Origin: Acidobacteriaceae bacterium
Lineage (GTDB): Bacteria; Acidobacteriota; Terriglobia; Terriglobales; Acidobacteriaceae
NCBI GenBank assembly: GCA_027449965.1
Contig: DAIDKP010000009.1
Coordinates: forward strand, 2,753-66,752
Direction: 5' to 3'
Length of the DNA stretch: 64,000 bases
Part shown: positions 5,902 through 52,968 of the stretch, one piece after another
Position numbering within the stretch: position 1 is the stretch's first letter
Layout of the letters: each line of letters starts with the position of its first letter
Made by a program: the position numbers and the translations under genes
Notes under the pieces: generated by a model
What the model saw: only the letters and a program-made list of their open reading frames with translations
Told to the model about the DNA's origin: nothing
Database searches by the model: none

Positions 5902-8379
5902 TCAGAAGCGAAACAGATGGCTCACCTTCACATAGAAGATGCGCTGATCGTTCAGGCTCGGTGTCGTGATCGTGGACAGAATCGGATCGTTGGCGTTGCA
6001 GTAGCCATCGGCCAGACGCGTACACAGATTGCTGTTCAGATTGATGTAGTCCGTCGTGTAGCCCAGATAAAACGCTGTTCCCGGATGCGGCAGATAGGTT
6101 AGCAGCAAGTCTCCGAATCCATCCTTCGTATACGGGGTGCTGGTATAGGTGGTGTTGGGCTGCTCCTGAACATACTCGCCGATAAAGTTCACTGACCACG
6201 CCTTGGTCAACTGCAAATTCAATCGCGAGACAGCCTGATGACTGTCGTACACCAGAGCGCCGTTCGACGGATGCGTGTAGTGGTCAAATTCGTAAAAGCC
6301 AGAGATATCCAGCCCGCCCGTTGGCTTGAACTCATAGTTCATGCGTTGCGATACTGCGTTCATCGGGTTGGGGCCAAGCGAAGCGATCGGCGAATAATTC
6401 ACTTCCTGCCCGCCATAGTAGCGATAGCGCAGAAAGAGTCCCGGATTGGGTGAGGTGCTTGCGCTAGCGCCATAGATGCGCGTCTGGTATTCGACATTGG
6501 CCGGCAGCGCGGAGTAGTCGCTCGGGCGCAGCCGATCCTGACCCAGATCCGCAAAAAAGGAGACAAAGGTCTTCTTCTGGAAGTTCAGCGAGTAGTTCGG
6601 ATTCAGATAGAAGTCGAGCGGCAAGCCCGTATGATCCCAGATCCGCTCCGAATAAACACCCACCGTGTGCGAGAGCAGAATTCCATGCCGCGGACGGAAG
6701 GTATACGAAGCCGAACCATAGGGCTGGCGCACATCCGGACGCGTAAAGAAACCCGTATTCGTCAGATATCCAGCTGCCACGTCGCGATATTTCCAACTGA
6801 AGTTGCGATGGAGATCCGAGTAGTACAGCGCTTCATAGTACGCCTGCCCGCCCTGTCGCGAGCCACTCAGATTTGTGGTCTGCGAGGTGATGCCCTGTCC
6901 CAGCCACGTCCAGCGTTTGCCAATGCGCAATCGATAGTCAATGCCGCCGTTGCGATTGAAGGAGTTCAGATACTGATAGTCGGCAAAGATCGCGCCGATA
7001 TTCGACTGTGTACCCAGGTCGCGATTCACGCGGCCAATGTAGTAGTGCGAGCGCGTGCCATAGTCGGGATTCGTCGGCGGAACCTGATATCCCGGATTGC
7101 GATCATCCACATCCAGCAGCCCCACCGCCCACGGACCCACCTTGCCCGTTAGCCGCTGGCCAAACTGCGGCATCACAATATTCGGCGTGTAGTAGAGATT
7201 GAACGGCGTCTGAAAGTAGCTGGCGTTTTCAATAAAAAACGGACGCAGCTCCGGAAAGTAAAACGGAAATCGCTGATTGGGCGGTGCCGGGTTGTTGATG
7301 CCAATCTGGCTGAAATCCGGGTTGAACGTCATGTCCAGTACCAGACTGTTGTGCAGGATAAACTTCGTATCCAGCCCGGTGTAGCCTTGCAGGTTCAGAT
7401 TGCTGAAGTAGGGATTGATCGGATCGACCGTATTCAGCAGCCGCTGGCTGTGTGCCAGCGCGTAGGGAATGAACTGCCAGTTTTTGCCGCTTTCTATGTT
7501 TTCAAATCCCTCGGCCAGCGCCTCCTGCGTCAGTTGGCCGGCAATGTTGTGCCGCACGGCGGGCCAGTTTTCATACTCCGTCTTGCGCGAGATGGACCGC
7601 GAAAACAGCAGTCCCCAGGTGCGCTGTGCGCCGTTGGCGGCCTTGTCAAAGTACAGGCTCGCAAAGGGAATTCGCATCAGCACCACCCAGCCGTTTGCCG
7701 TTTTCTGACCCCAGCTGTCCCACACCGTGTCAAAGGAAAAATCCGTTCCCGTCAGCTCTGTATACAGCGCATCGGCCTGAATGCCCAGCGGATTGACGCG
7801 AAAGAGAAACGAGCGGCGATGATCGGCAAAGGTGTCGATCATCACCTGAACATAATCGTCATCGCTCAGGTTATCCCGCTGCAACATGTGTCCGCGAATC
7901 CCCGCCGGAGTGCCATCCTTGCAGACAAAAGCGACATAGAAGTTCTCGTGCGTATAGCCCACATACGCCGTCGTCGGTTCGGTCGGTGGCAGGCCATCCT
8001 CGGGATAGCGCTGTACGAAGTTGCGGATGCGCAACATCGCCTGCGCCGCTTTTCCGGTGGGTTGCGGCGTCAGAAAATTCGCCAGCTTCGGTTCGCCCGG
8101 TAGCACGGGGACCAGAATGTGCGGCAGTGTCTTTTCCGATTGCTCAATGCTGATCTGCGCCTTCACCGGGGGCGTGGGCGATTTTGCCTTGCCTGCAGAA
8201 CCCACCTCCGCCGCTCCCGGAGCAGACGGATGCGCATCCGGGCAAGCCGATGCCGCCACGCACACCATCGCCAGAAGGCACAGCATACTGCGCTGCAAGC
8301 ACCATCGCAGCCTGCCTGTCGAGCGGGTGGCTGGCTGCCCCTGGCTCATGGCTTTCCACGCAGGATCATGTGCGGCCAA
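5902..8379 (-). CDS. DUF5916 / CBM9-like domain outer-membrane protein
   Basis: Signal region; DDYVQVMIDTF...FRVNPLGIQAD...DFSFDTVW CBM9-like N-domain; TFNPDFSQ motif; beta-rich C-terminus ending in Phe (YVKVSHLFRF). Confidence 0.75.
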   Translation of the reverse strand: MAAHDPAWKAMSQGQPATRSTGRLRWCLQRSMLCLLAMVCVAASACPDAHPSAPGAAEVGSAGKAKSPTPPVKAQISIEQSEKTLPHILVPVLPGEPKLANFLTPQPTGKAAQAMLRIRNFVQRYPEDGLPPTEPTTAYVGYTHENFYVAFVCKDGTPAGIRGHMLQRDNLSDDDYVQVMIDTFADHRRSFLFRVNPLGIQADALYTELTGTDFSFDTVWDSWGQKTANGWVVLMRIPFASLYFDKAANGAQRTWGLLFSRSISRKTEYENWPAVRHNIAGQLTQEALAEGFENIESGKNWQFIPYALAHSQRLLNTVDPINPYFSNLNLQGYTGLDTKFILHNSLVLDMTFNPDFSQIGINNPAPPNQRFPFYFPELRPFFIENASYFQTPFNLYYTPNIVMPQFGQRLTGKVGPWAVGLLDVDDRNPGYQVPPTNPDYGTRSHYYIGRVNRDLGTQSNIGAIFADYQYLNSFNRNGGIDYRLRIGKRWTWLGQGITSQTTNLSGSRQGGQAYYEALYYSDLHRNFSWKYRDVAAGYLTNTGFFTRPDVRQPYGSASYTFRPRHGILLSHTVGVYSERIWDHTGLPLDFYLNPNYSLNFQKKTFVSFFADLGQDRLRPSDYSALPANVEYQTRIYGASASTSPNPGLFLRYRYYGGQEVNYSPIASLGPNPMNAVSQRMNYEFKPTGGLDISGFYEFDHYTHPSNGALVYDSHQAVSRLNLQLTKAWSVNFIGEYVQEQPNTTYTSTPYTKDGFGDLLLTYLPHPGTAFYLGYTTDYINLNSNLCTRLADGYCNANDPILSTITTPSLNDQRIFYVKVSHLFRF

Positions 8380-44784: not shown

Positions 44785-45239
44785 TGCATTCCCCCTGAAG
44801 TTATCCGCGTGAAAGACGCAGAATCTGGGTTTCGATCATCGTCGCTGCGAGAGTGTATCTTCTCGGATGCGCACTGCGCACACCTGTCGCATTCGATGCA
44901 AAAAGATTGCGCCGAGGCATTTACAACGCAAAGTAAATCTTAAAGTGGGACCAGCGAAAGCTGGTTCCGAAGGAAGTGCCAGTCTTTGCGGAAGAGCAAT
45001 CCATGGGTGAATCTGAAACTCTTCCATTTGAGTTGTGGGGCGGAGATTGCCTGAACTTAGCTTAACGCGAATGTGGGCGGGCGGGACAGGCGGCAGACAG
45101 GAAAAATTTCAGAGGCAAACTGCGCACCGTCTGCGCGGACGGTGCGGCTTCGACCGATACAATAGTTGCAGTCATACGCTTCCACAAGGCTCGAAACGAG
45201 GAACAAACCGCGGGAGTGCAGGAGATGATGGGACGGAGT

Positions 45240-45611
45240 ATGAGTGAAACCAAAAGCAGGCAGCGAGTGCTGGTAGCCGACGATGAGCGTGTGATTGCAG
45301 ACACGCTGTCGATGATTCTGAATCAAAGCGGATTTGAAACACGCGTGGCATACTCCGGCGAACAGGCTGTGGAGATTGCCGGCGAGTTCCATCCGGAGAT
45401 GTTGATCTCGGATGTGATTATGGTGGGCGTCAACGGGATCGATGCGGCGATTGAGATTCGCCGGATGCTGCCGGAGATCAAGGTGCTTCTGTTTTCAGGA
45501 CAGGCGGCAACGGCTGACCTGCTGGAAAAAGCCCGCGCGCGAGGCTATGACTTTGAGATTTTGGCGAAACCCGTGCATCCGCAGGACCTGCTGGCTCGCA
45601 TGAGGCGGTGA
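45240..45611 (+). CDS. Single-domain response regulator (receiver only)
   Basis: VLVADDE, LISDVIM, LFSG, AKPVHP; no output domain. Confidence 0.85.
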   Translation: MSETKSRQRVLVADDERVIADTLSMILNQSGFETRVAYSGEQAVEIAGEFHPEMLISDVIMVGVNGIDAAIEIRRMLPEIKVLLFSGQAATADLLEKARARGYDFEILAKPVHPQDLLARMRR

Positions 45612-45678: not shown

Positions 45679-46221
45679 CTACGGTTTTGCGGAGCTTTGA
45701 CGCAGCATCCGGACAAGCTCCTGCTCGGTCTGAGAGCCTGCAATGCTGCCCTCGTATCGCCTTTGCACCACGCCTGCTCGATCCACCAGAAAAGAGACGG
45801 GAAGTCCCAGAATGCCACCGTAGAGCAGGCTCAGCCTGGGGTCGCTCATCACAACGGGATAGTTAATGCTGAGTCTGTGGACCCAGTCGAGAGCCGCACG
45901 GGATGAATCGTCCATGGAGATGCCGAGGATCTGCAGTCCCTGTGCGCGATAGCGATTCTGCCAGGTAACCAGTTGCGGAATCTCCGCCAGGCAAGGACCA
46001 CACCAGGTGGCCCAGAAATTGATCAGGACAACCTTGCCGCGAAACGCGCGAAGATGGACCGGCGTGTGGTTCGTGATGGATGAGCGCGTGAAGTCCGGAG
46101 CCGGCGAGCGCGCTGCAATCGATGAAGCCCACGTGGGAGCGAACGGGCAGGCGTAGAGAAACACGCCCGCCGTCAACGCTTGAAGCAGGTTGCGGCGGCT
46201 GGGTTGGGCTGGTTCAGGCAA
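45679..46221 (-). CDS. TlpA/ResA-like thioredoxin with Tat-like signal
   Basis: TTG start overlapping the rhodanese stop; SRRNLL; GKVVLINFWATWCGPC; GLPVSFLVDR.G. Confidence 0.85.
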   Translation of the reverse strand: MPEPAQPSRRNLLQALTAGVFLYACPFAPTWASSIAARSPAPDFTRSSITNHTPVHLRAFRGKVVLINFWATWCGPCLAEIPQLVTWQNRYRAQGLQILGISMDDSSRAALDWVHRLSINYPVVMSDPRLSLLYGGILGLPVSFLVDRAGVVQRRYEGSIAGSQTEQELVRMLRQSSAKP

Positions 46222-46705
46222 CCGGATATCCTTTGTCAGCCCAGTCGGCACCGAAGTTGTTATCGATTCGCAGAACTTTGACGGAAGAGAAACGCATAGC
46301 CTGAAGCTGATCCCATGCCGGAGCGATGTTGGGGCAGTGCGTCCAGGGGCAGCAGCCGCAATAAAGCAGGATGGGCTGTGTGTGCGGCCAGGCTTGGACT
46401 GTCTGACGCAGCAGCGCGAGTCCATCGGGTTGCGACCCTGGGCCTGCATACATGGCGCCGCGAATATGCTTCTGGTCGAACATGGAGTGGAAGCCCACCT
46501 GCAAAATCTTCCACGGAGCCGCGTGCGATCGCTGGAGTTGCGCGTTGACGAAGGCAGGCTCAAGCAAAGCCGAGGATGGAATCGTCGTTGCGCTCTCGGC
46601 CTGCAGGCGTGAAGTGTCGAGTGCAAGCGCGATGGCGCCGAGAGCGACAGGCGTGTGAAGGAGAAAATTCCGACGAGTGTGTTGCGTGGACATAGTGTTC
46701 CTCAT
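46214..46705 (-). CDS. Tat-exported rhodanese-like protein with Cys-rich loop
   Basis: TRRNFL; HIRGA; ILLYCGCCPWTHCPN; F.ADWADKGYPV; ATGA overlap with the upstream gene. Confidence 0.8.
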   Translation of the reverse strand: MRNTMSTQHTRRNFLLHTPVALGAIALALDTSRLQAESATTIPSSALLEPAFVNAQLQRSHAAPWKILQVGFHSMFDQKHIRGAMYAGPGSQPDGLALLRQTVQAWPHTQPILLYCGCCPWTHCPNIAPAWDQLQAMRFSSVKVLRIDNNFGADWADKGYPVA

Positions 46706-48666
46706 TTCGTGGCCGTAGTGGAGTTTGGAGTTGCTGTAGTGTTGGCTATGCCCGCCACGATGCCCTTACCTTCTTCGATGGCCAGGATGCGATCGACGGC
46801 AGGAATGTTGAGTTTTTCGATGGTGCGATCAGGCCAGTGAATCTCCACGGCGTCGATGTGTGCGGCATCGCCGAGGCCGAAGTGGAGGCGAAAATCGTTG
46901 GAGGAAAGATAGCTGCCGCCGCTGAGCACATCCTGTCTCTGGCGCTCACCGTTGGCCGTCAGATAGACTGTGCTGCCGACAGCATCGCGTGGGCTTTTCG
47001 GTCCTCCGATCAGGCTTAGCTCAATCCAGTGATGATGGTCGGGGCTGACGTTTTTGAGCAGCACCGGAACGCCATCCATGTTGCTGATGACAACGTCTAT
47101 TTTCCCATCGTTGAAGAGATCGCCAAAGGCCGCGCCACGGCCTACGCTGACGGTGGCAAGTCCGGTGCCTTCGACTGCTGGGACTTCTGTGAAGGTTCCA
47201 TTGCGATTGTTCTGGAAAAGCTGCGGGCGCTGCGCATAGCTCTGCCCCCATTCCGGGTGCTGATCGACCTGCGGGTAGACGTGGCCGTTGGCGATAAACA
47301 GATCGAGCCAGCCATCGTTGTCATAGTCCAAAAATCCGTCACCAAAGCCTACGAAGGGCATGGTAGGCAGCGCGATGCCAGCCTTGTAGCTTTCGTCGCT
47401 GAAGTTGCCAGTTCCATCGTTTTCAAAAAGCACTTTGTAGTCGTCGGCAAAAGTGGTGCTCACCACGTCGAGGTGGCCATTATTTTTGTAGTCACCGAGA
47501 GCCAGGCCCATATTGGCCACTTCACGTCCGCCTTCGTTCACGGCAAATCCGTCGGTGTAGCTGTCGTCCTCAAACGTGCCGTTGTGCTTGTTGATGTAGA
47601 GGTAGTTGGGCGAAGAGTCATCGGCAACCAGAAGATCGGGCCAGCCATCATTGTTGACATCAGCGAAGACCGTGCCCAGGCCATAGTAGCGATCCGGATC
47701 GCTGACCCCGGCCTTGACGCTCACATCGGTGAAGGTTCCATCGCCGTTGTTGTGGAAGAGATGGTCGGCCGCACCCTTGAGGCCGCGCGGACCACACATG
47801 ACCGTAACGCCGCGAAAGACGCAGCGCGAGTAGCCAACAACCTGATTGCCACTTTCCGGCGGGTTGTGAACGTCGAAATCGATGTAGCCGTCGACAAAGA
47901 GATCCAGCCGTCCGTCACCGTCGTAGTCGCCAAAGGTCGCTCCAGCAGACCATCCGCCGAGCGCGATTCCGGCCTTCTCTGCTACATCGGTAAAAGTGCC
48001 GTCATGATTGTTGTGATATAGACGATTTTTGCCGTAGTTCGTGATGTAAAGATCGGGCCACCCATCGTTGTCAAAATCTCCAACGACAACGCCGTATCCC
48101 CAGCGGTCATTGGTGACGCCAGCCTTTGCGGCAACATTGGTGAAGGTGCCGTCATGATTGTTATGAAAAAGTGCAGCCTGCGGTGCTGCGGCTTTGCCGT
48201 CGAGCGCGTCAAAGGTGGATCCGTTGACAAAATAGATGTCGAGCCAACCGTCGTGATCGTAGTCCAGTAGCGCAACGCCAGGGCCTTTGGCCTCAAGAAT
48301 ATATTTTTTCGCAGGAGTTCCGGCGGTGTGATGCCAGATGGTAAGACCGGCCTGCTGCGCGATGTTTTGGAAGATGATCGGACCGCTTTTGACAAATCCG
48401 CCCGCCGTGATGGGACGATGTTGCGCATCGAAAAGTGGTTGTTGTGGAGGTCCGCTGGAAGAACCGCCCATCTGCTGCGCGCGGGCCGGAACGAGCCATA
48501 CAAGAGTCGCGATCAAGAGCATCCAGCAGCTTGACAGAAAAGCGAGACGGTTACGGCGGCGCAGCACTGCGGCGGGTATTCCGGTGAAGAAAACTCCAGG
48601 TCCGGTCATCACACGAATTATACGAGAGCGGAGATGTACGGAAGAACTGACGCGCGTACGGGGCAA
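46702..48666 (-). CDS. CRTAC1-family protein (FG-GAP/VCBS repeats + ASPIC/UnbV)
   Basis: Repeated DYDHDGWLDIY, DFDNDGWPDLY, DYDGDGRLDLF, DVNNDGWPDLL; GGSYLSSNDFRLHFGLG. Exact start uncertain. Confidence 0.88.
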   Translation of the reverse strand: MPRTRVSSSVHLRSRIIRVMTGPGVFFTGIPAAVLRRRNRLAFLSSCWMLLIATLVWLVPARAQQMGGSSSGPPQQPLFDAQHRPITAGGFVKSGPIIFQNIAQQAGLTIWHHTAGTPAKKYILEAKGPGVALLDYDHDGWLDIYFVNGSTFDALDGKAAAPQAALFHNNHDGTFTNVAAKAGVTNDRWGYGVVVGDFDNDGWPDLYITNYGKNRLYHNNHDGTFTDVAEKAGIALGGWSAGATFGDYDGDGRLDLFVDGYIDFDVHNPPESGNQVVGYSRCVFRGVTVMCGPRGLKGAADHLFHNNGDGTFTDVSVKAGVSDPDRYYGLGTVFADVNNDGWPDLLVADDSSPNYLYINKHNGTFEDDSYTDGFAVNEGGREVANMGLALGDYKNNGHLDVVSTTFADDYKVLFENDGTGNFSDESYKAGIALPTMPFVGFGDGFLDYDNDGWLDLFIANGHVYPQVDQHPEWGQSYAQRPQLFQNNRNGTFTEVPAVEGTGLATVSVGRGAAFGDLFNDGKIDVVISNMDGVPVLLKNVSPDHHHWIELSLIGGPKSPRDAVGSTVYLTANGERQRQDVLSGGSYLSSNDFRLHFGLGDAAHIDAVEIHWPDRTIEKLNIPAVDRILAIEEGKGIVAGIANTTATPNSTTATK

Positions 48667-49266
48667 TCAGAAGTCACGACGGCCTTCGAGAGCGCGCGCC
48701 ATCGAAATCTCATCTACGTATTCCAGGTCGCTGCCAGCGGGAACACCGGTGGCAATGCGCGTGATGCGCACGGAAAGTCGGCGCAACAGCGCGGCAAGCC
48801 AGTCCGCAGTGGCTTCACCTTCGAGCGTGGGGCTGGTAGCTAGAATGACCTCATCCACTTCGCCGGCTTCCACGCGGGCCATCAGCGAGGTAATGCGAAG
48901 CTGATCGGGGCCGACGCCATGCAGCGGTGAAAGCGTACCGTGCAGCACATGATAGACGCCCTGATATCCGCGGACGCGCTCGATTGAAGCGATGCTGGTC
49001 GGTTCCTCCACGACGCAGACCAGCCGCTGGTTCCGCACGGGATTGGAGCAGTACGCGCAGGGATCGACATCGGTGACGTTGTTGCAGATCGAACACAGGC
49101 GCAGGTTTGCCTTGAGCGCGGCTAGTGCCTCGGCTAGCGCGTGCGCATCGTCCTCGCTGGCCCGCAGCAGGTGAAAGGCAAACCGTTGTGCGGTTTTACT
49201 GCCGACGCCGGGCAGTTTTTTCAGCTCTTCAATGAGCCTGGCCAGAGGCTCTGCGTAACGCTGCAC
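48667..49266 (-). CDS. recR: Recombination mediator
   Basis: LPGVGSKTAQR, CSICNN.....PC.YC zinc finger, YHVLHG.LSP, EVILAT Toprim; GTG start with GGAGG SD. Confidence 0.95.
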   Translation of the reverse strand: MQRYAEPLARLIEELKKLPGVGSKTAQRFAFHLLRASEDDAHALAEALAALKANLRLCSICNNVTDVDPCAYCSNPVRNQRLVCVVEEPTSIASIERVRGYQGVYHVLHGTLSPLHGVGPDQLRITSLMARVEAGEVDEVILATSPTLEGEATADWLAALLRRLSVRITRIATGVPAGSDLEYVDEISMARALEGRRDF

Positions 49267-49297
49267 GATGCTTGCTCCTCCAAACCATGTGCGCGGA

Positions 49298-50281
49298 TCA
49301 GACGCGCACGGTGCGATACACGATGCCGGTGAAAACGTCCGGTGTGATGCCGCCTTTGCCCCATTGTGCATCAAGCGAGGCGGTAGGTTTGCGCGCGACG
49401 ACTTCGGCTTCGGTGAGGCCGGATTTTTTCAGTGCTGCAACGCGGTCGCGAACGGCGGACAGCATGGCATGGTATTCCACAAGCTGCTCGCGCGTGCCCA
49501 GCGGTCCGTGGCCGGGGATGATTTTTGTCTGAGCATCGGCAAGTGTGAGCGCATGGGCAGAAGCAGTAATCATGCCGTCGATATTGCCGCCGGAGCTTTC
49601 GTCGATGAGCGGATAGACCCCGTTGAACCAGATGTCGGCGACATGCAGAACATTGGCATGGGTAAAGTGGATGTAGATGTCTGTGTCGGTGTGCGCGGGC
49701 GCATAGTGCGCCAGCGTGATCTGGTCCCCGTTGCGCCAGAGCGTGAGCGACTGGTCAAACGTGGTCACGGGCCAGGCCGGGGCCGGATACGCAGGCAGCG
49801 ATACGTGCAGCAGCGCAATGGACTGCGGAGTCATCAGGCGCTCGCGTGTCTTGCTGTGGGCCAGAATGCGAAATCCTGCCTCGTGCATGGGCTGGTTGCC
49901 ATCGACGTGATCGACGTGCCAGTGCGAGTTGATGAGCGTAGCCGCAGGATCCTTGCTGATGGCGTCGAGCGCGGCCAGAATGCGCGGCGCGGCAGGCATG
50001 TAGCTGCTGTCGATAAGCACTTTGCCGTCCGGGCCAGTCTGCACCGCCATGTTGCCACCGTAACCCTGGAGCAGATGGATGTTGCCAGCAAGCTGAGTAA
50101 CGCGAATGGGAGTTCTGGCCGCTGCGGCGCGGCTGGTGGTGCGGAAGTCGGCGGGCGCGGCCTGGGCAAGCAAATGAACCGGCGTCGCGGCAGCAACTCC
50201 GGCAACAGCCATCACGCTCAAAAACGAGCGGCGGCTCGCGATGGGCATGGCTGACGTTGTGGAAGCGTCTTCGAAGAACAT
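49298..50281 (-). CDS. Tat-exported MBL-fold metallo-hydrolase (cyclase-like)
   Basis: SRRSFL; HWHVDHVDGN; AHTDTD; HVAD; IIPGHG. Confidence 0.85.
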   Translation of the reverse strand: MFFEDASTTSAMPIASRRSFLSVMAVAGVAAATPVHLLAQAAPADFRTTSRAAAARTPIRVTQLAGNIHLLQGYGGNMAVQTGPDGKVLIDSSYMPAAPRILAALDAISKDPAATLINSHWHVDHVDGNQPMHEAGFRILAHSKTRERLMTPQSIALLHVSLPAYPAPAWPVTTFDQSLTLWRNGDQITLAHYAPAHTDTDIYIHFTHANVLHVADIWFNGVYPLIDESSGGNIDGMITASAHALTLADAQTKIIPGHGPLGTREQLVEYHAMLSAVRDRVAALKKSGLTEAEVVARKPTASLDAQWGKGGITPDVFTGIVYRTVRV

Positions 50282-50364
50282 GGTCGTTCCTTCCTTCTGG
50301 ATCAAATTTGAGCTGGATCAGATTGCAGTGCTGCAAACGTGCGTAAAGTTTGTTGCCGTCGCCC

Positions 50365-50691
50365 TCAACTGAGGCCGGGAATGCTGAGGCCGCCCAGCAG
50401 TCCGGTTAGCTGCGATTTCAAGTTCTGTTCCGCCTTGTTACCGGCGTCGTTTACGGCGGCGACGATCAGATCCTGAAGCATCTCCAGATCGGGGGATTCT
50501 CCGCTGAGGCTGGCAATGGCGGCGGGATCAATCTGCAGGCGCAGAAGCTGTTTCTTGCCGTTCATGAGGACGGTGACGGCGCCGCCGCCGCTGGCGCCCT
50601 CAATCTGGGTCTGGCTAAGCTTGCGCTGCACCTCCTCCTGCATTTGACCGGCTTTGGAAAGCATCTCCTGAAGCTTCATCGGATTGAACAT
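50365..50691 (-). CDS. ybaB: YbaB/EbfC nucleoid-associated protein
   Basis: EGASGGGAVTV.MNG, DLEMLQDLIVAAVNDA; between dnaX and recR. Confidence 0.92.
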   Translation of the reverse strand: MFNPMKLQEMLSKAGQMQEEVQRKLSQTQIEGASGGGAVTVLMNGKKQLLRLQIDPAAIASLSGESPDLEMLQDLIVAAVNDAGNKAEQNLKSQLTGLLGGLSIPGLS

Positions 50692-50784
50692 GGCAGACTC
50701 CTTCCACGGGAAAATTCCGCAATCCATGGCAAGCATACGATGCGCGGCTACGGTGCGGGATGCAAAGGACGACGGAAACCAAAA

Positions 50785-52776
50785 TTATTTTGGGCGCAGA
50801 TCGATGACACTACAAATCTCACCGTCAAAAATTTCCAGCGACTGGACAACCAGCGGATGATTCCGCGCTTCCTGGTCGATACTGCCGGCACTGGCAACAC
50901 GGGTCGTGATGGCGACAGAGGATTCGCCGGGAATAATCCGATAACGTGTGGGCGCACCGGATTGTGTCAGCGCCTGGCGGATCAGTTTCTCCGCTGCCGC
51001 ATTGAAGGTGATGCGGATCATCGTTGCTTTGGCCGGAACCTCGATGCGCAGCGAAGCTCCGTCGGGAATCCACTGGCCGGCATCGAGCAACGAAGCCGCT
51101 GAGCTGTGACCGCCGGTTTCGAGCGCCTGCACGACGGCGGCTTGCGCGGCCTCGAGCGAGAAGCCGCCTGCGGAAGACGGTGTTTCGAGCTTGGTTACCA
51201 GCGGTGTTTCGAGCCGTGTATCGATCAGAGCGGTCGAGTCTGGAGTGCTTGCCGCTGCCTCGATCGCGGGGATCGTCGCCACAGCAGGCTCTGCAACTGG
51301 CCGCTGCACAAGTTGCGGCCCAACCGCGCGGGCCAGCGCGCCTTCAGTTTCACGGAACTCCGCATGGCCGGCTTCGATGCGTGTTGATTCGGCATATGCG
51401 GCGGTGGAAGCGGTCATGGGTGAGACGCGCGCAGCAGCAGACGCGACCGGAGCGGATGCGGCAGAACCTGACGAAACAAACGGGGAGGGCGACGGCGCGT
51501 GCGAGCTGGGTACGTGTGAACTGGATGCGTGTGGACTCGCTCCATGCGCGGCGGAGTTGGATCGCGCCGCCAGTGCTGCTCCTTTGGCGGGAAGCGCCGC
51601 CAGACCGCTCAGAATCTGCTCCATGGGAATCAGACGCTGCGCATGGACGAGTCGCAGCAGGCCAAGTTCCAGATGGAAGCGCTGTTCCTGACGAAAGTTG
51701 AGATCGTCAAAGGTGCGCAGCAGCAGTTGAAGATTTCGTGTGAGTTCTTCTTCGCTGAAAAGCTGCGCGGTGCGTGCGGCACGGGCGCGTTCTTCCGTGG
51801 CGATTTGCAGCAGGGTGGTGTTTTCACCGCCCAGCGAAGCCATCAGCGTGTTGCGCAGATACCGAACCATCTGCCGTGCGATGGCCACAGGGCTATTGCC
51901 GCTGGTGAGCAGCCGATCCAGCTCATGCATCAGTGGCGCAGACTCGCCCCGTGCGATGATCTCAAAGAGCCGCTCCAGCGTTGCGTTGGGCAGTGTGCCC
52001 ATCAGTTCGCGGATCAGTGAAGCCTCAAGCAGGGGTTGACCATTCTGTCGCGGCGCGGAGGCGATGGCCTGATCCATGATGGAAAGCGCATCGCGCATGG
52101 AGCCGTCGCCCGCCTCGGCCAGCAGTGCCAGTGCTTCATCATCAAAGGCGATGTTTTCGTGCGCGGCAATGGTGCGAAGCTGCTGGAGAATATCGTCAAA
52201 GCGCACGGCATGGAAGCTGAAGTGCTGACAGCGTGAGCGGATGGTTTGCGGAATGTTCTCCGGCTCAGTCGTCGCCATCATAAAAACAGCCCATTCAGGT
52301 GGTTCTTCCAGCGTTTTCAGAATGGCGTTGAAGGCGGCGTCGGTGATCTGGTGGGCTTCGTCGAGCAGAAAGATTTTGTAGCGGTCGCGCGCCGGGCGCA
52401 CAGTAGCCTGGCTGCAGATGGACCGTACATCGTCGATGCCCCGGTTGGAGGCTGCGTCGATCTCAATGAAGTCAAAGGACTGTGTGGCTGCATCGTCGCC
52501 GCCGCCCGAGGAGATTTCGCGGCAACTCACGCATTGCAGACAAGGCTCGATATCGGGCCGCTCCGGGGAGCCAACCGCGGCGCGGCAGTCCAGCGCCATG
52601 GCCAGGATTCGCGCAATGGTGGTTTTTCCAATGCCGCGATGGCCGGAAAAGATGTAGCCGTGGGCGATGCGTTGCTGCGTGAGCGCATTCTTCAGCGTAC
52701 GCGTCACGTGCTCCTGACCGGCAACGTCGGCAAAGCGCTGAGGTCGATATTTTCGCGCCAGAACCTGATAGGCCAT
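50785..52776 (-). CDS. dnaX: DNA polymerase III gamma/tau subunit
   Basis: YQVLARKYRPQ, GIGKTT, EIDAAS, LDEAH, TIRSRC, GSMRDALS; long Ala/Ser/Pro-rich linker. Confidence 0.95.
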   Translation of the reverse strand: MAYQVLARKYRPQRFADVAGQEHVTRTLKNALTQQRIAHGYIFSGHRGIGKTTIARILAMALDCRAAVGSPERPDIEPCLQCVSCREISSGGGDDAATQSFDFIEIDAASNRGIDDVRSICSQATVRPARDRYKIFLLDEAHQITDAAFNAILKTLEEPPEWAVFMMATTEPENIPQTIRSRCQHFSFHAVRFDDILQQLRTIAAHENIAFDDEALALLAEAGDGSMRDALSIMDQAIASAPRQNGQPLLEASLIRELMGTLPNATLERLFEIIARGESAPLMHELDRLLTSGNSPVAIARQMVRYLRNTLMASLGGENTTLLQIATEERARAARTAQLFSEEELTRNLQLLLRTFDDLNFRQEQRFHLELGLLRLVHAQRLIPMEQILSGLAALPAKGAALAARSNSAAHGASPHASSSHVPSSHAPSPSPFVSSGSAASAPVASAAARVSPMTASTAAYAESTRIEAGHAEFRETEGALARAVGPQLVQRPVAEPAVATIPAIEAAASTPDSTALIDTRLETPLVTKLETPSSAGGFSLEAAQAAVVQALETGGHSSAASLLDAGQWIPDGASLRIEVPAKATMIRITFNAAAEKLIRQALTQSGAPTRYRIIPGESSVAITTRVASAGSIDQEARNHPLVVQSLEIFDGEICSVIDLRPK

Positions 52777-52968
52777 CGGACGGTGCTCCCAATCGGATTG
52801 TATCGTTTGCCGCAAGACTTGCTCAGGACAGGCTGTGGATGTTTTGGCGGTCGGGGCATCTCCAAATGTGGGAACAGGCATCCCAGAGACAGGAATACCC
52901 GGAGCGATTCGCCGGAGTCTGGATGAGGCTCAGCGGTGGATGCGATTCCAAGGTGACAAGGAGAGACG

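Follow-up and report, generated by a model that had tools for sequence, protein, structure and literature searches.

What does a rhodanese-fold protein with four cysteines in its active-site loop do outside the cytoplasm, and which of the genes around it share in that work? The question is raised by a 64,000-nucleotide stretch of an Acidobacteriaceae bacterium genome (contig DAIDKP010000009.1, positions 2,753 to 66,752; hereafter the window), in which the gene for such a protein lies between a CRTAC1-like propeller gene and a TlpA-like thioredoxin gene. The original prediction, made from the letters of the window, had taken the three genes for one coupled extracytoplasmic thiol/sulfur module. 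Our comparison of genomes shows that the conserved unit consists of two genes, the rhodanese and its TlpA-like partner, and that the propeller gene is a lineage-specific neighbor and not a part of it. We propose, tentatively and with somewhat less than even confidence, that the pair operates as a multi-cysteine relay on the exported rhodanese that is recycled by the TlpA-like protein. The genes, signals, loop and domains described at the outset are all present in the window, as follows:

46702-48666, reverse strand: FG-GAP/UnbV_ASPIC (CRTAC1-like) propeller gene, 654 amino acids (Pfam)
46214-46705, reverse strand: gene of the exported rhodanese-fold protein with the four-cysteine active-site loop, 163 amino acids from the ATG at 46705 (open reading frame)
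45679-46221, reverse strand: TlpA/ResA/DsbE-like thiol:disulfide oxidoreductase gene, 180 amino acids, TTG start (Pfam)
46598-46705, reverse strand: twin-arginine-type signal peptide of the rhodanese, residues 1-36, with HTRRNFLLHTPVALGAIALALDTSRLQA before ES at its end (read from the sequence)
46363-46328, reverse strand: rhodanese loop Y115-C116-G-C118-C119-P-W-T-H-C124-P-N126, YCGCCPWTHCPN (invariant alignment columns)
46005-45991, reverse strand: thioredoxin active site W-C-G-P-C (read from the sequence)
46214-46221, reverse strand: the rhodanese stop and the TlpA start overlap by 8 bp, TTGCCTGA; AAGGA lies 7 nt upstream (sequence)

By itself, the middle protein is hard to place. Against Pfam it has no match at E<=0.01, Rhodanese being reached only at E=0.027 (15.3 bits against PF00581, for a gathering cut-off of 22.2). 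The label given to it originally is nevertheless upheld by its relatives and by structure prediction. PF00581 is matched at E<=0.01 by 23 of 27 diverse family members (best 2.7e-8), an AlphaFold2 (AF2) model built from the family alignment (pLDDT 87, pTM 0.76) has a rhodanese fold, and the top 25 Protein Data Bank (PDB) matches of this model in Foldseek are all rhodanese domains. The best of them are the single-domain rhodaneses 3tp9, 2kl3/3ilm, 6mxv and 3nhv, with TM scores of 0.67-0.76 on the target and rmsd values of 2.3-2.8 Å. On these grounds the middle protein is, as modeled, a single-domain rhodanese. A thioredoxin fold, suggested by a phmmer search of PDB sequences that set CPWT-HCPNIAPAW beside APWCGHCKxLAPxW, was rejected: the likeness is local, and the AF2 model and Foldseek show a rhodanese.

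The loop sets this family apart from its relatives. Single-domain rhodaneses (PF00581; PspE, GlpE, the Alr3790 domain 3ilm/2kl3 and Francisella 6mxv) have the same fold and a cysteine after the central strand, and PspE is periplasmic too. The present loop, however, is about five residues longer (as compared with 6mxv) and has three extra invariant cysteines, and no conserved basic residue, Arg or Lys, was found in it across 269 sequences. The family also has Q-V-G in place of the usual D-x-R motif. Its consensus is Y-C-G-C-C-P-[WFML]-x-x-C-P-N: in this alignment the pattern Y-C-G-C-C-P-x-x-x-C-P-[N/T] is exact in 262/269 sequences and all four cysteines are kept in 268/269, while the residue after CCP is W in 84% and otherwise F, M or L. 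Since the profile-to-PDB alignment lays 'ivlYCGCCPWekCPNiap' on 'IYLYCGSGFR-----SAL' of 6mxv, YCG on YCG, C116 occupies the canonical catalytic position. Although the cysteine is thus correctly placed, the six-residue rhodanese loop C-x-x-x-x-[R/K/T] with its basic thiosulfate-binding residues is missing, and so is the H-C-x5-R loop of Cdc25 and Acr2, there being no Arg at +6 and a Tyr before the cysteine. With neither Arg nor Lys conserved in the loop, classical thiosulfate:cyanide sulfurtransferase activity and arsenate reduction are both unlikely. Two cofactors were also considered for the loop. A Cys-Trp cross-linked quinone at CCPW is ruled out, as the Trp is replaced by F, M or L in about 16% of sequences. 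An Fe-S cluster is unlikely because general secretory (Sec) signals predominate in the family and are incompatible with the export of a preassembled cluster.

Proteins with this loop form a large but patchily distributed family. It counts at least 850 proteins in a 90%-clustered database, and 197 clusters at E<=1e-30 or 574 at E<=1e-10 in a 50%-clustered library. More than 600 sampled genome loci place it in Acidobacteriota, Proteobacteria, Verrucomicrobiota, Bacteroidota and Ignavibacteria, and its cultured carriers include Methylacidiphilum and Methylacidimicrobium (Verrucomicrobiota) and Daejeonella (Bacteroidota). Acid-soil, peat and acidophilic bacteria make up most of the hosts. Within the Acidobacteriota 17/301 genomes have it, in single copy, and the genome of the window likewise has one. 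No curated family name covers these exported four-cysteine rhodaneses, and a literature search for rhodanese together with TlpA returned incidental co-mentions only.

The strongest evidence on function is the company that the gene keeps. We compared two samples of genome loci: the 80 closest to the window rhodanese (Terriglobales, Steroidobacteraceae, other Gammaproteobacteria, Rhizomicrobium and Hyphomicrobiales) and 80 more divergent ones (Bryobacterales, Blastocatellia, Acidoferrales, Bacteroidota, Verrucomicrobiota and Ignavibacteria). At least two contigs are common to both samples (for example L006/L148 and L017/L163), and open reading frames (ORFs) in the fetched loci were called with simple custom scripts. 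In the first sample a TlpA homolog lies directly downstream on the same strand in 79/80 loci across three phyla, including Gamma- and Alphaproteobacteria, at intergenic distances mostly between -17 and +30; the window fits this picture with its 8-bp overlap, which is as originally described. The pair is also found in Verrucomicrobia. TlpA is adjacent in 17/80 loci of the second sample. Of 163 distinct rhodanese sequences placed on a tree, 95 are TlpA-adjacent; adjacency there requires 6 changes against a shuffled mean of 52, and none of 500 shuffles gave a number as low; the window rhodanese falls in a clade of 50 sequences (SH-aLRT 97%), all of which have an adjacent TlpA. The pairing goes far beyond chance. 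As the few changes on the tree and the smaller share in the second sample indicate, the pair is an inherited, horizontally shared unit of one large clade and not of the whole family. The functional link first drawn between the multi-cysteine rhodanese and the TlpA-like thioredoxin has therefore gained weight from co-occurrence, and the two genes are not unlinked in other genomes, a finding that would have spoken against it. A strictly obligatory TlpA is not supported, as among the more distant members of the family there are some without it and others fused with cytochrome c.

The partner itself is a 180-amino-acid protein that matches AhpC-TSA/Redoxin in Pfam (E~1e-20) and combines a W-C-x-x-C site with an N-terminal signal or anchor. 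Against NCBIfam it stays below the cut-offs for ResA (88.1 of 170 bits, NF002854), TlpA (60.5 of 230 bits, NF047696) and also DsbE. The active site of the partner TlpAs reads WC[A/D/G/E/V/P]PC. The window protein is 39-55% identical to the partner TlpAs of other phyla and 27-38% identical to five TlpA-like paralogs of its own genome, which sit on very long branches. As the partner TlpAs resemble each other more than they do these paralogs, the TlpA-like protein is probably a dedicated partner of the rhodanese. No rhodanese-TlpA fusion protein was seen among 150 representatives, a 508-amino-acid TlpA ORF in one locus (L065) having no second domain. TlpA of Bradyrhizobium, ResA and CcmG/DsbE share with it the thioredoxin fold, the W-C-x-P-C site and the N-terminal signal or anchor. 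Like them it is presumed to be a DsbD/CcdA-dependent reductase of one periplasmic client (PMC7558416), but this client would be a rhodanese-fold protein and not apocytochrome c, ScoI or CoxB.

A model for the pair can be built from these parts. Electrons would reach the periplasm via the DsbD-type membrane protein of the genome, which encodes one DsbD_TM protein, and pass to the TlpA-like protein. C116 would capture a thiophilic or electrophilic species as a persulfide, perselenide or trisulfide bridge, and the neighboring cysteines (C118, C119 and C124) would resolve the adduct; the reduced product would leave or be handed over, and one or more intramolecular disulfides would stay behind. TlpA would then reduce these disulfides and reset the loop. 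The rhodanese GlpE is known to pass sulfur to thioredoxin, and particular cysteine clients in the periplasm are reduced by TlpA-type proteins. The relays of Staphylococcus aureus and Bacillus subtilis ArsC and of Cdc25 follow the same logic, in which a nucleophilic cysteine is joined by a resolving cysteine and the disulfide is handed to thioredoxin; Cdc25 even has a rhodanese fold, with an active-site and a backdoor cysteine. These enzymes, however, are cytoplasmic and use an oxyanion-binding CX5R loop, which is absent from the four-cysteine rhodanese. Sulfane sulfur or selenium species are the favored cargo because of the role of the fold elsewhere, because the nearest family is one of selenoproteins and because the few informative contexts are those of sulfur or thiol stress. 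What the analysis shows directly are the export signals, the rhodanese fold, the position and invariance of the four cysteines, the conserved pair and the DsbD and TatC genes; the direction of electron flow, the cysteine relay and the identity of the substrate we infer.

The nearest curated family is NF041203, the rhodanese-related (seleno)protein 'LYCAU', which is matched weakly by 27/27 family members (best E=2.7e-6). The window rhodanese does not belong to it, scoring 12.5 bits for a 115-bit cut-off. Both families are exported, and the NF041203 loop, which in acidobacterial loci reads [FY]-C-[AT]-U-P-N, shares the flanks Y-C-G...C-P-N; the CGCC family differs by six extra residues (CCPWxx) between the two shared cysteine positions. 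The selenocysteine in the NF041203 loop argues for redox catalysis at this site. The fetched LYCAU loci showed no TlpA within 1.5 kb, and no selenocysteine codon or variant of the CGCC family was seen in 17 genomes. Many rhodanese-like ORFs of Acidobacteriota (for example in L082, L087 and L089) have one in-frame TGA at the loop, [FY]C[AT]UPNE, and the NF041203 cut-off is exceeded in only 2/301 genomes of the phylum. There seems to be a broad set of exported rhodanese-like selenoproteins below the curated threshold.

Genomic context beyond TlpA is much more variable. All-versus-all clustering of the ORFs of the 160 loci and Pfam scans of neighbors (two upstream neighbors in each of the 80 closest loci, plus selected others) yielded no conserved third gene. 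Neighbors recur within subclades only: RND/MFP/OMF genes, OsmC, an extracytoplasmic function (ECF) sigma factor with a ZAS-type domain, LysR with YeiH, gamma-glutamyltranspeptidase and ExbBD. Those of the proteobacterial loci are unrelated (TIR-TPR, pyrroloquinoline quinone (PQQ) dehydrogenase, GH3 and an IS481 transposase). Contexts of sulfur or thiol stress that support the proposed cargo are scattered. Daejeonella sp. JGW-45 (L180, 1081-6039) has Usp, two YeeE/YedE-like genes, the four-cysteine rhodanese, an MFS transporter and a SoxA/TsdA-type dihaem cytochrome c; OsmC-family genes stand beside the pair in 19 loci of acidobacterial subclades and the ECF sigma factor in 15; and in the window itself we counted as sulfur context a SoxH-related gene of the metallo-beta-lactamase (MBL) fold, predicted to be Tat-exported (twin-arginine translocation), two genes upstream. 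The Daejeonella locus, from a cultured strain, is the only clearly sulfur-flavored context found; there the start of the MFS transporter gene overlaps the rhodanese stop.

The same neighborhoods could be read as periplasmic defense against oxidants or electrophiles, the rhodanese reducing peroxides, hypohalous-acid damage, sulfenic acids or quinones and TlpA recycling it, much as Caulobacter TlpA reportedly serves the PprX peroxiredoxin. The OsmC genes (14 + 5 loci), the ZAS-type sigma factor genes (15 loci) and an RND/MFP/OMF set in two acidobacterial subclades would suit such a role, as would a dihaem cytochrome c peroxidase gene upstream in two loci, a selenoprotein family as nearest relative and a patchy accessory distribution (17/301 genomes), which fits a stress trait. 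We consider this reading quite unlikely, however, since the contexts are limited to related genomes, where common descent may account for the gene order, the OsmC proteins lack a signal peptide, there is no known peroxidase with a rhodanese fold, and the need for four cysteines is left unexplained. The sigma factor, of about 300 amino acids with a C-terminal, anti-sigma-like zinc finger (H-x3-C-x2-C, ZAS-type), is encoded at 7030-7941 on the reverse strand of L020 and in 14 other loci; its gene is convergent to the pair and directly downstream of it, and is accompanied by an OsmC gene and the RND/MFP/OMF efflux set.

Outside the TlpA-adjacent clade a redox partner is found again, this time fused to the rhodanese. 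In at least 22 clusters, mostly from Acidoferrales (for example L090, 6001-6948, and L093, 6001-6954; also P0184 and P0270-P0290), a single natural fusion protein combines a transmembrane anchor with a class I cytochrome c (CAFCH ... MPGF) and the four-cysteine rhodanese. The fusion genes have an SDR gene on one side, an OprB porin gene on the other and no adjacent TlpA, and in other Acidobacteriota genomes the same SDR-OprB locus holds an unfused cytochrome of 195 amino acids. One further cluster is a cupin-rhodanese fusion. A gene for a TonB-dependent-type barrel also follows in the cytochrome c-rhodanese fusion locus. In one acidobacterial subclade a gamma-glutamyltranspeptidase gene lies about 1 kb downstream of a rhodanese without TlpA, in seven loci (L104, 4477-6201, and six others). 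ExbB-ExbD-ExbD-TPR genes lie upstream in about 11 loci.

Several of these observations weigh against a TlpA-recycled relay. The loop lacks the positively charged residues by which classical rhodaneses bind thiosulfate. An adjacent TlpA is absent for 68/163 sampled sequences, so that the reductase is not universally required. No neighbor except TlpA is conserved across the 160 loci, and the assignment to sulfur or selenium therefore rests on sporadic contexts. A full-text literature search for the loop motif found no paper. Finally, a fused His/Met class I cytochrome c is poorly suited to dithiol/disulfide chemistry and would better serve a metal centre.

This last point leads to the main rival of the relay, a soft metal or metalloid thiolate site with Cu(I) as the favored ligand, which would make the rhodanese a functional analog of CopG or ArsD. 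TlpA would do no more than keep the cysteine ligands in reduced form until the metal is loaded, its role towards ScoI and CoxB as well, and the fused cytochrome would exchange single electrons with the metal centre, for example from Cu(I) to Cu(II). The C-C-x4-C of the loop has the spacing of the ArsD As(III) site, and W, F, M or L after CCP could be cation-pi or thioether partners for Cu(I). A one-electron centre would agree with fusion to a high-potential-type cytochrome c, the Tat signal in the lineage of the window would permit folding and loading before export, and the hosts, mostly of acid soil, peat and other acidic habitats, are also in keeping with this reading. The loop also contains C-x-C-C, the ligand motif of the tetranuclear copper cluster of CopG (PMC7558416, PMC8456105), and TlpA reduces the copper-binding cysteines of CoxB and ScoI (PMC7558416), copper-site cysteines being its best-known clients.

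The likeness to CopG (DUF411, PF04214), a periplasmic copper-thiol oxidoreductase, lies in the C-x-C-C at a strand-helix junction and is one of function only. CopG has a thioredoxin fold and is normally encoded in cop/cus clusters, whereas the four-cysteine family has a rhodanese fold and lies outside such clusters; the two have no Pfam or PDB sequence match, and only the CxCC string is shared. A CopG search of the genome of the window gave no match, the control genomes being equally silent. Across the 160 loci, resistance genes for copper, arsenic or mercury do not recur, and the RND pump near some of them scores best as a multidrug type and not as CusA/CzcA. The sole metal regulator, RcnR-like by its H-C-H-H fingerprint (H3-C35-H60-H64), stands 1.7 kb from a fusion gene, beyond the convergent porin gene. 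We regard a metal site as possible but on balance unlikely.

A more far-reaching idea is that the loop forms a previously unrecognized cofactor-type centre, either a cysteine-bridged copper cluster that trades electrons with cytochrome c, a counterpart of CopG on another fold, or a four-thiol selenite/tellurite 'Painter' site that TlpA resets. In the Painter reaction selenite or tellurite reacts with four thiols, giving one S-Se-S bridge and one disulfide. We think such a centre unlikely; if real, it would establish a new class of oxidoreductases for metals or chalcogens in the periplasm, widely distributed among acid-soil and peat bacteria as well as acidophilic methanotrophs.

The third gene of the original module fares differently from the pair. 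Its product has six FG-GAP_3 stretches (PF13517, E=3e-56) and a UnbV_ASPIC domain (PF07593, E=1.6e-20), as in the CRTAC1/ASPIC-UnbV family, and DxDxDG-type calcium loops are visible in the translation. Among the 80 closest loci, however, a co-oriented CRTAC1-like gene is found upstream in the two nearest relatives alone, L001 and L002, and one on the opposite strand in two more loci; the gene is absent from 76/80. The inclusion of CRTAC1 in the module is thus not borne out. The genome also has about 11 FG-GAP/UnbV_ASPIC paralogs, at 26-67% identity (contigs C23, with seven, C14, C7 and C3), which amount to a large lineage-specific expansion. In the window, the 4-bp ATGA overlap described between the propeller and rhodanese genes exists for the longest rhodanese ORF and is lost with the likelier start, the second ATG at 46693, which leaves an 8-nt gap. 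We take this second ATG, giving a protein of 159 amino acids, to be the more likely real start because it is preceded by GAGGAA and because the closest relatives, of 157-159 amino acids, begin M-x-x-x-H-S-R-R. Even with the gap the coupling of the two genes is still tight.

The propeller protein bears on one more explanation, in which the cysteines have a structural role, in two disulfides or a Zn site, the rhodanese is an inactive binding module and TlpA serves cytochrome c maturation or the FG-GAP/ASPIC protein. Many rhodanese-like domains are indeed non-catalytic, a propeller protein with a Cys pair lies directly upstream in the lineage of the window, and no CcmG/ResA can be assigned in the genome, where ResB is absent and CcmF/CcmC-like genes are not beside any TlpA paralog. 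We nevertheless find it very improbable. The canonical catalytic cysteine is kept in a loop whose Gly, Pro and Asn are invariant as well, the strict adjacency of TlpA across phyla amid changing surroundings argues that the rhodanese is the client, and the propeller gene is missing from 76 of the 80 closest loci.

The export signals, too, differ between the window and the family. The rhodanese begins with T-R-R-N-F-L-L, a hydrophobic stretch and then L-Q-A, which matches the Pfam Rieske TAT-signal model weakly (E=0.013); the TlpA-like protein has a looser S-R-R-N-L-L followed by a hydrophobic stretch. With TatC present in the genome, the rhodanese reads as a Tat substrate. The RR motif is limited to the nearest relatives, and for both proteins the relatives mostly carry Sec-type signals or signal anchors. 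Tat export thus looks lineage-specific: the twin-arginine signals first noted stand for the window rhodanese, less clearly for its TlpA, and fail as a property of the system.

Rhodanese and TlpA each belong to known superfamilies, but an exported subfamily with four invariant cysteines and its own reductase or fused cytochrome c looks undescribed. A TlpA-recycled relay, if true, would give the periplasmic reducing pathways a new class of client, and could show in what way the abundant bacteria of soil and peat deal with reactive sulfur, selenium or copper in the extracytoplasmic space. Since the two proteins are small and soluble, and cultured strains exist among the hosts, the proposal is directly testable.

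In the window the propeller, rhodanese and TlpA genes end a co-oriented run, and a convergent gene follows:

50785-52881, reverse strand: dnaX, in the co-oriented run that ends in the propeller, rhodanese and TlpA genes
50365-50736, reverse strand: ybaB, same run
49298-50305, reverse strand: MBL-fold gene, between ybaB and recR, same run
48667-49374, reverse strand: recR, directly preceding the propeller gene in the run
45216-45611, forward strand: single-domain response regulator (receiver only, 131 amino acids), convergent to the TlpA gene

The MBL-fold gene encodes a twin-arginine signal of its own, SRRSFLSVMA, and overlaps the longest recR ORF at its 3' end. In NCBIfam it comes closest to the SoxH-related model 'quinoprotein relay system zinc metallohydrolase 2' (E=1e-19), short of the cut-off. 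The gene is found in L001 and L002 and is missing from the ybaB-recR interval of L053. The receiver-only response regulator keeps the same place in all three of these loci.

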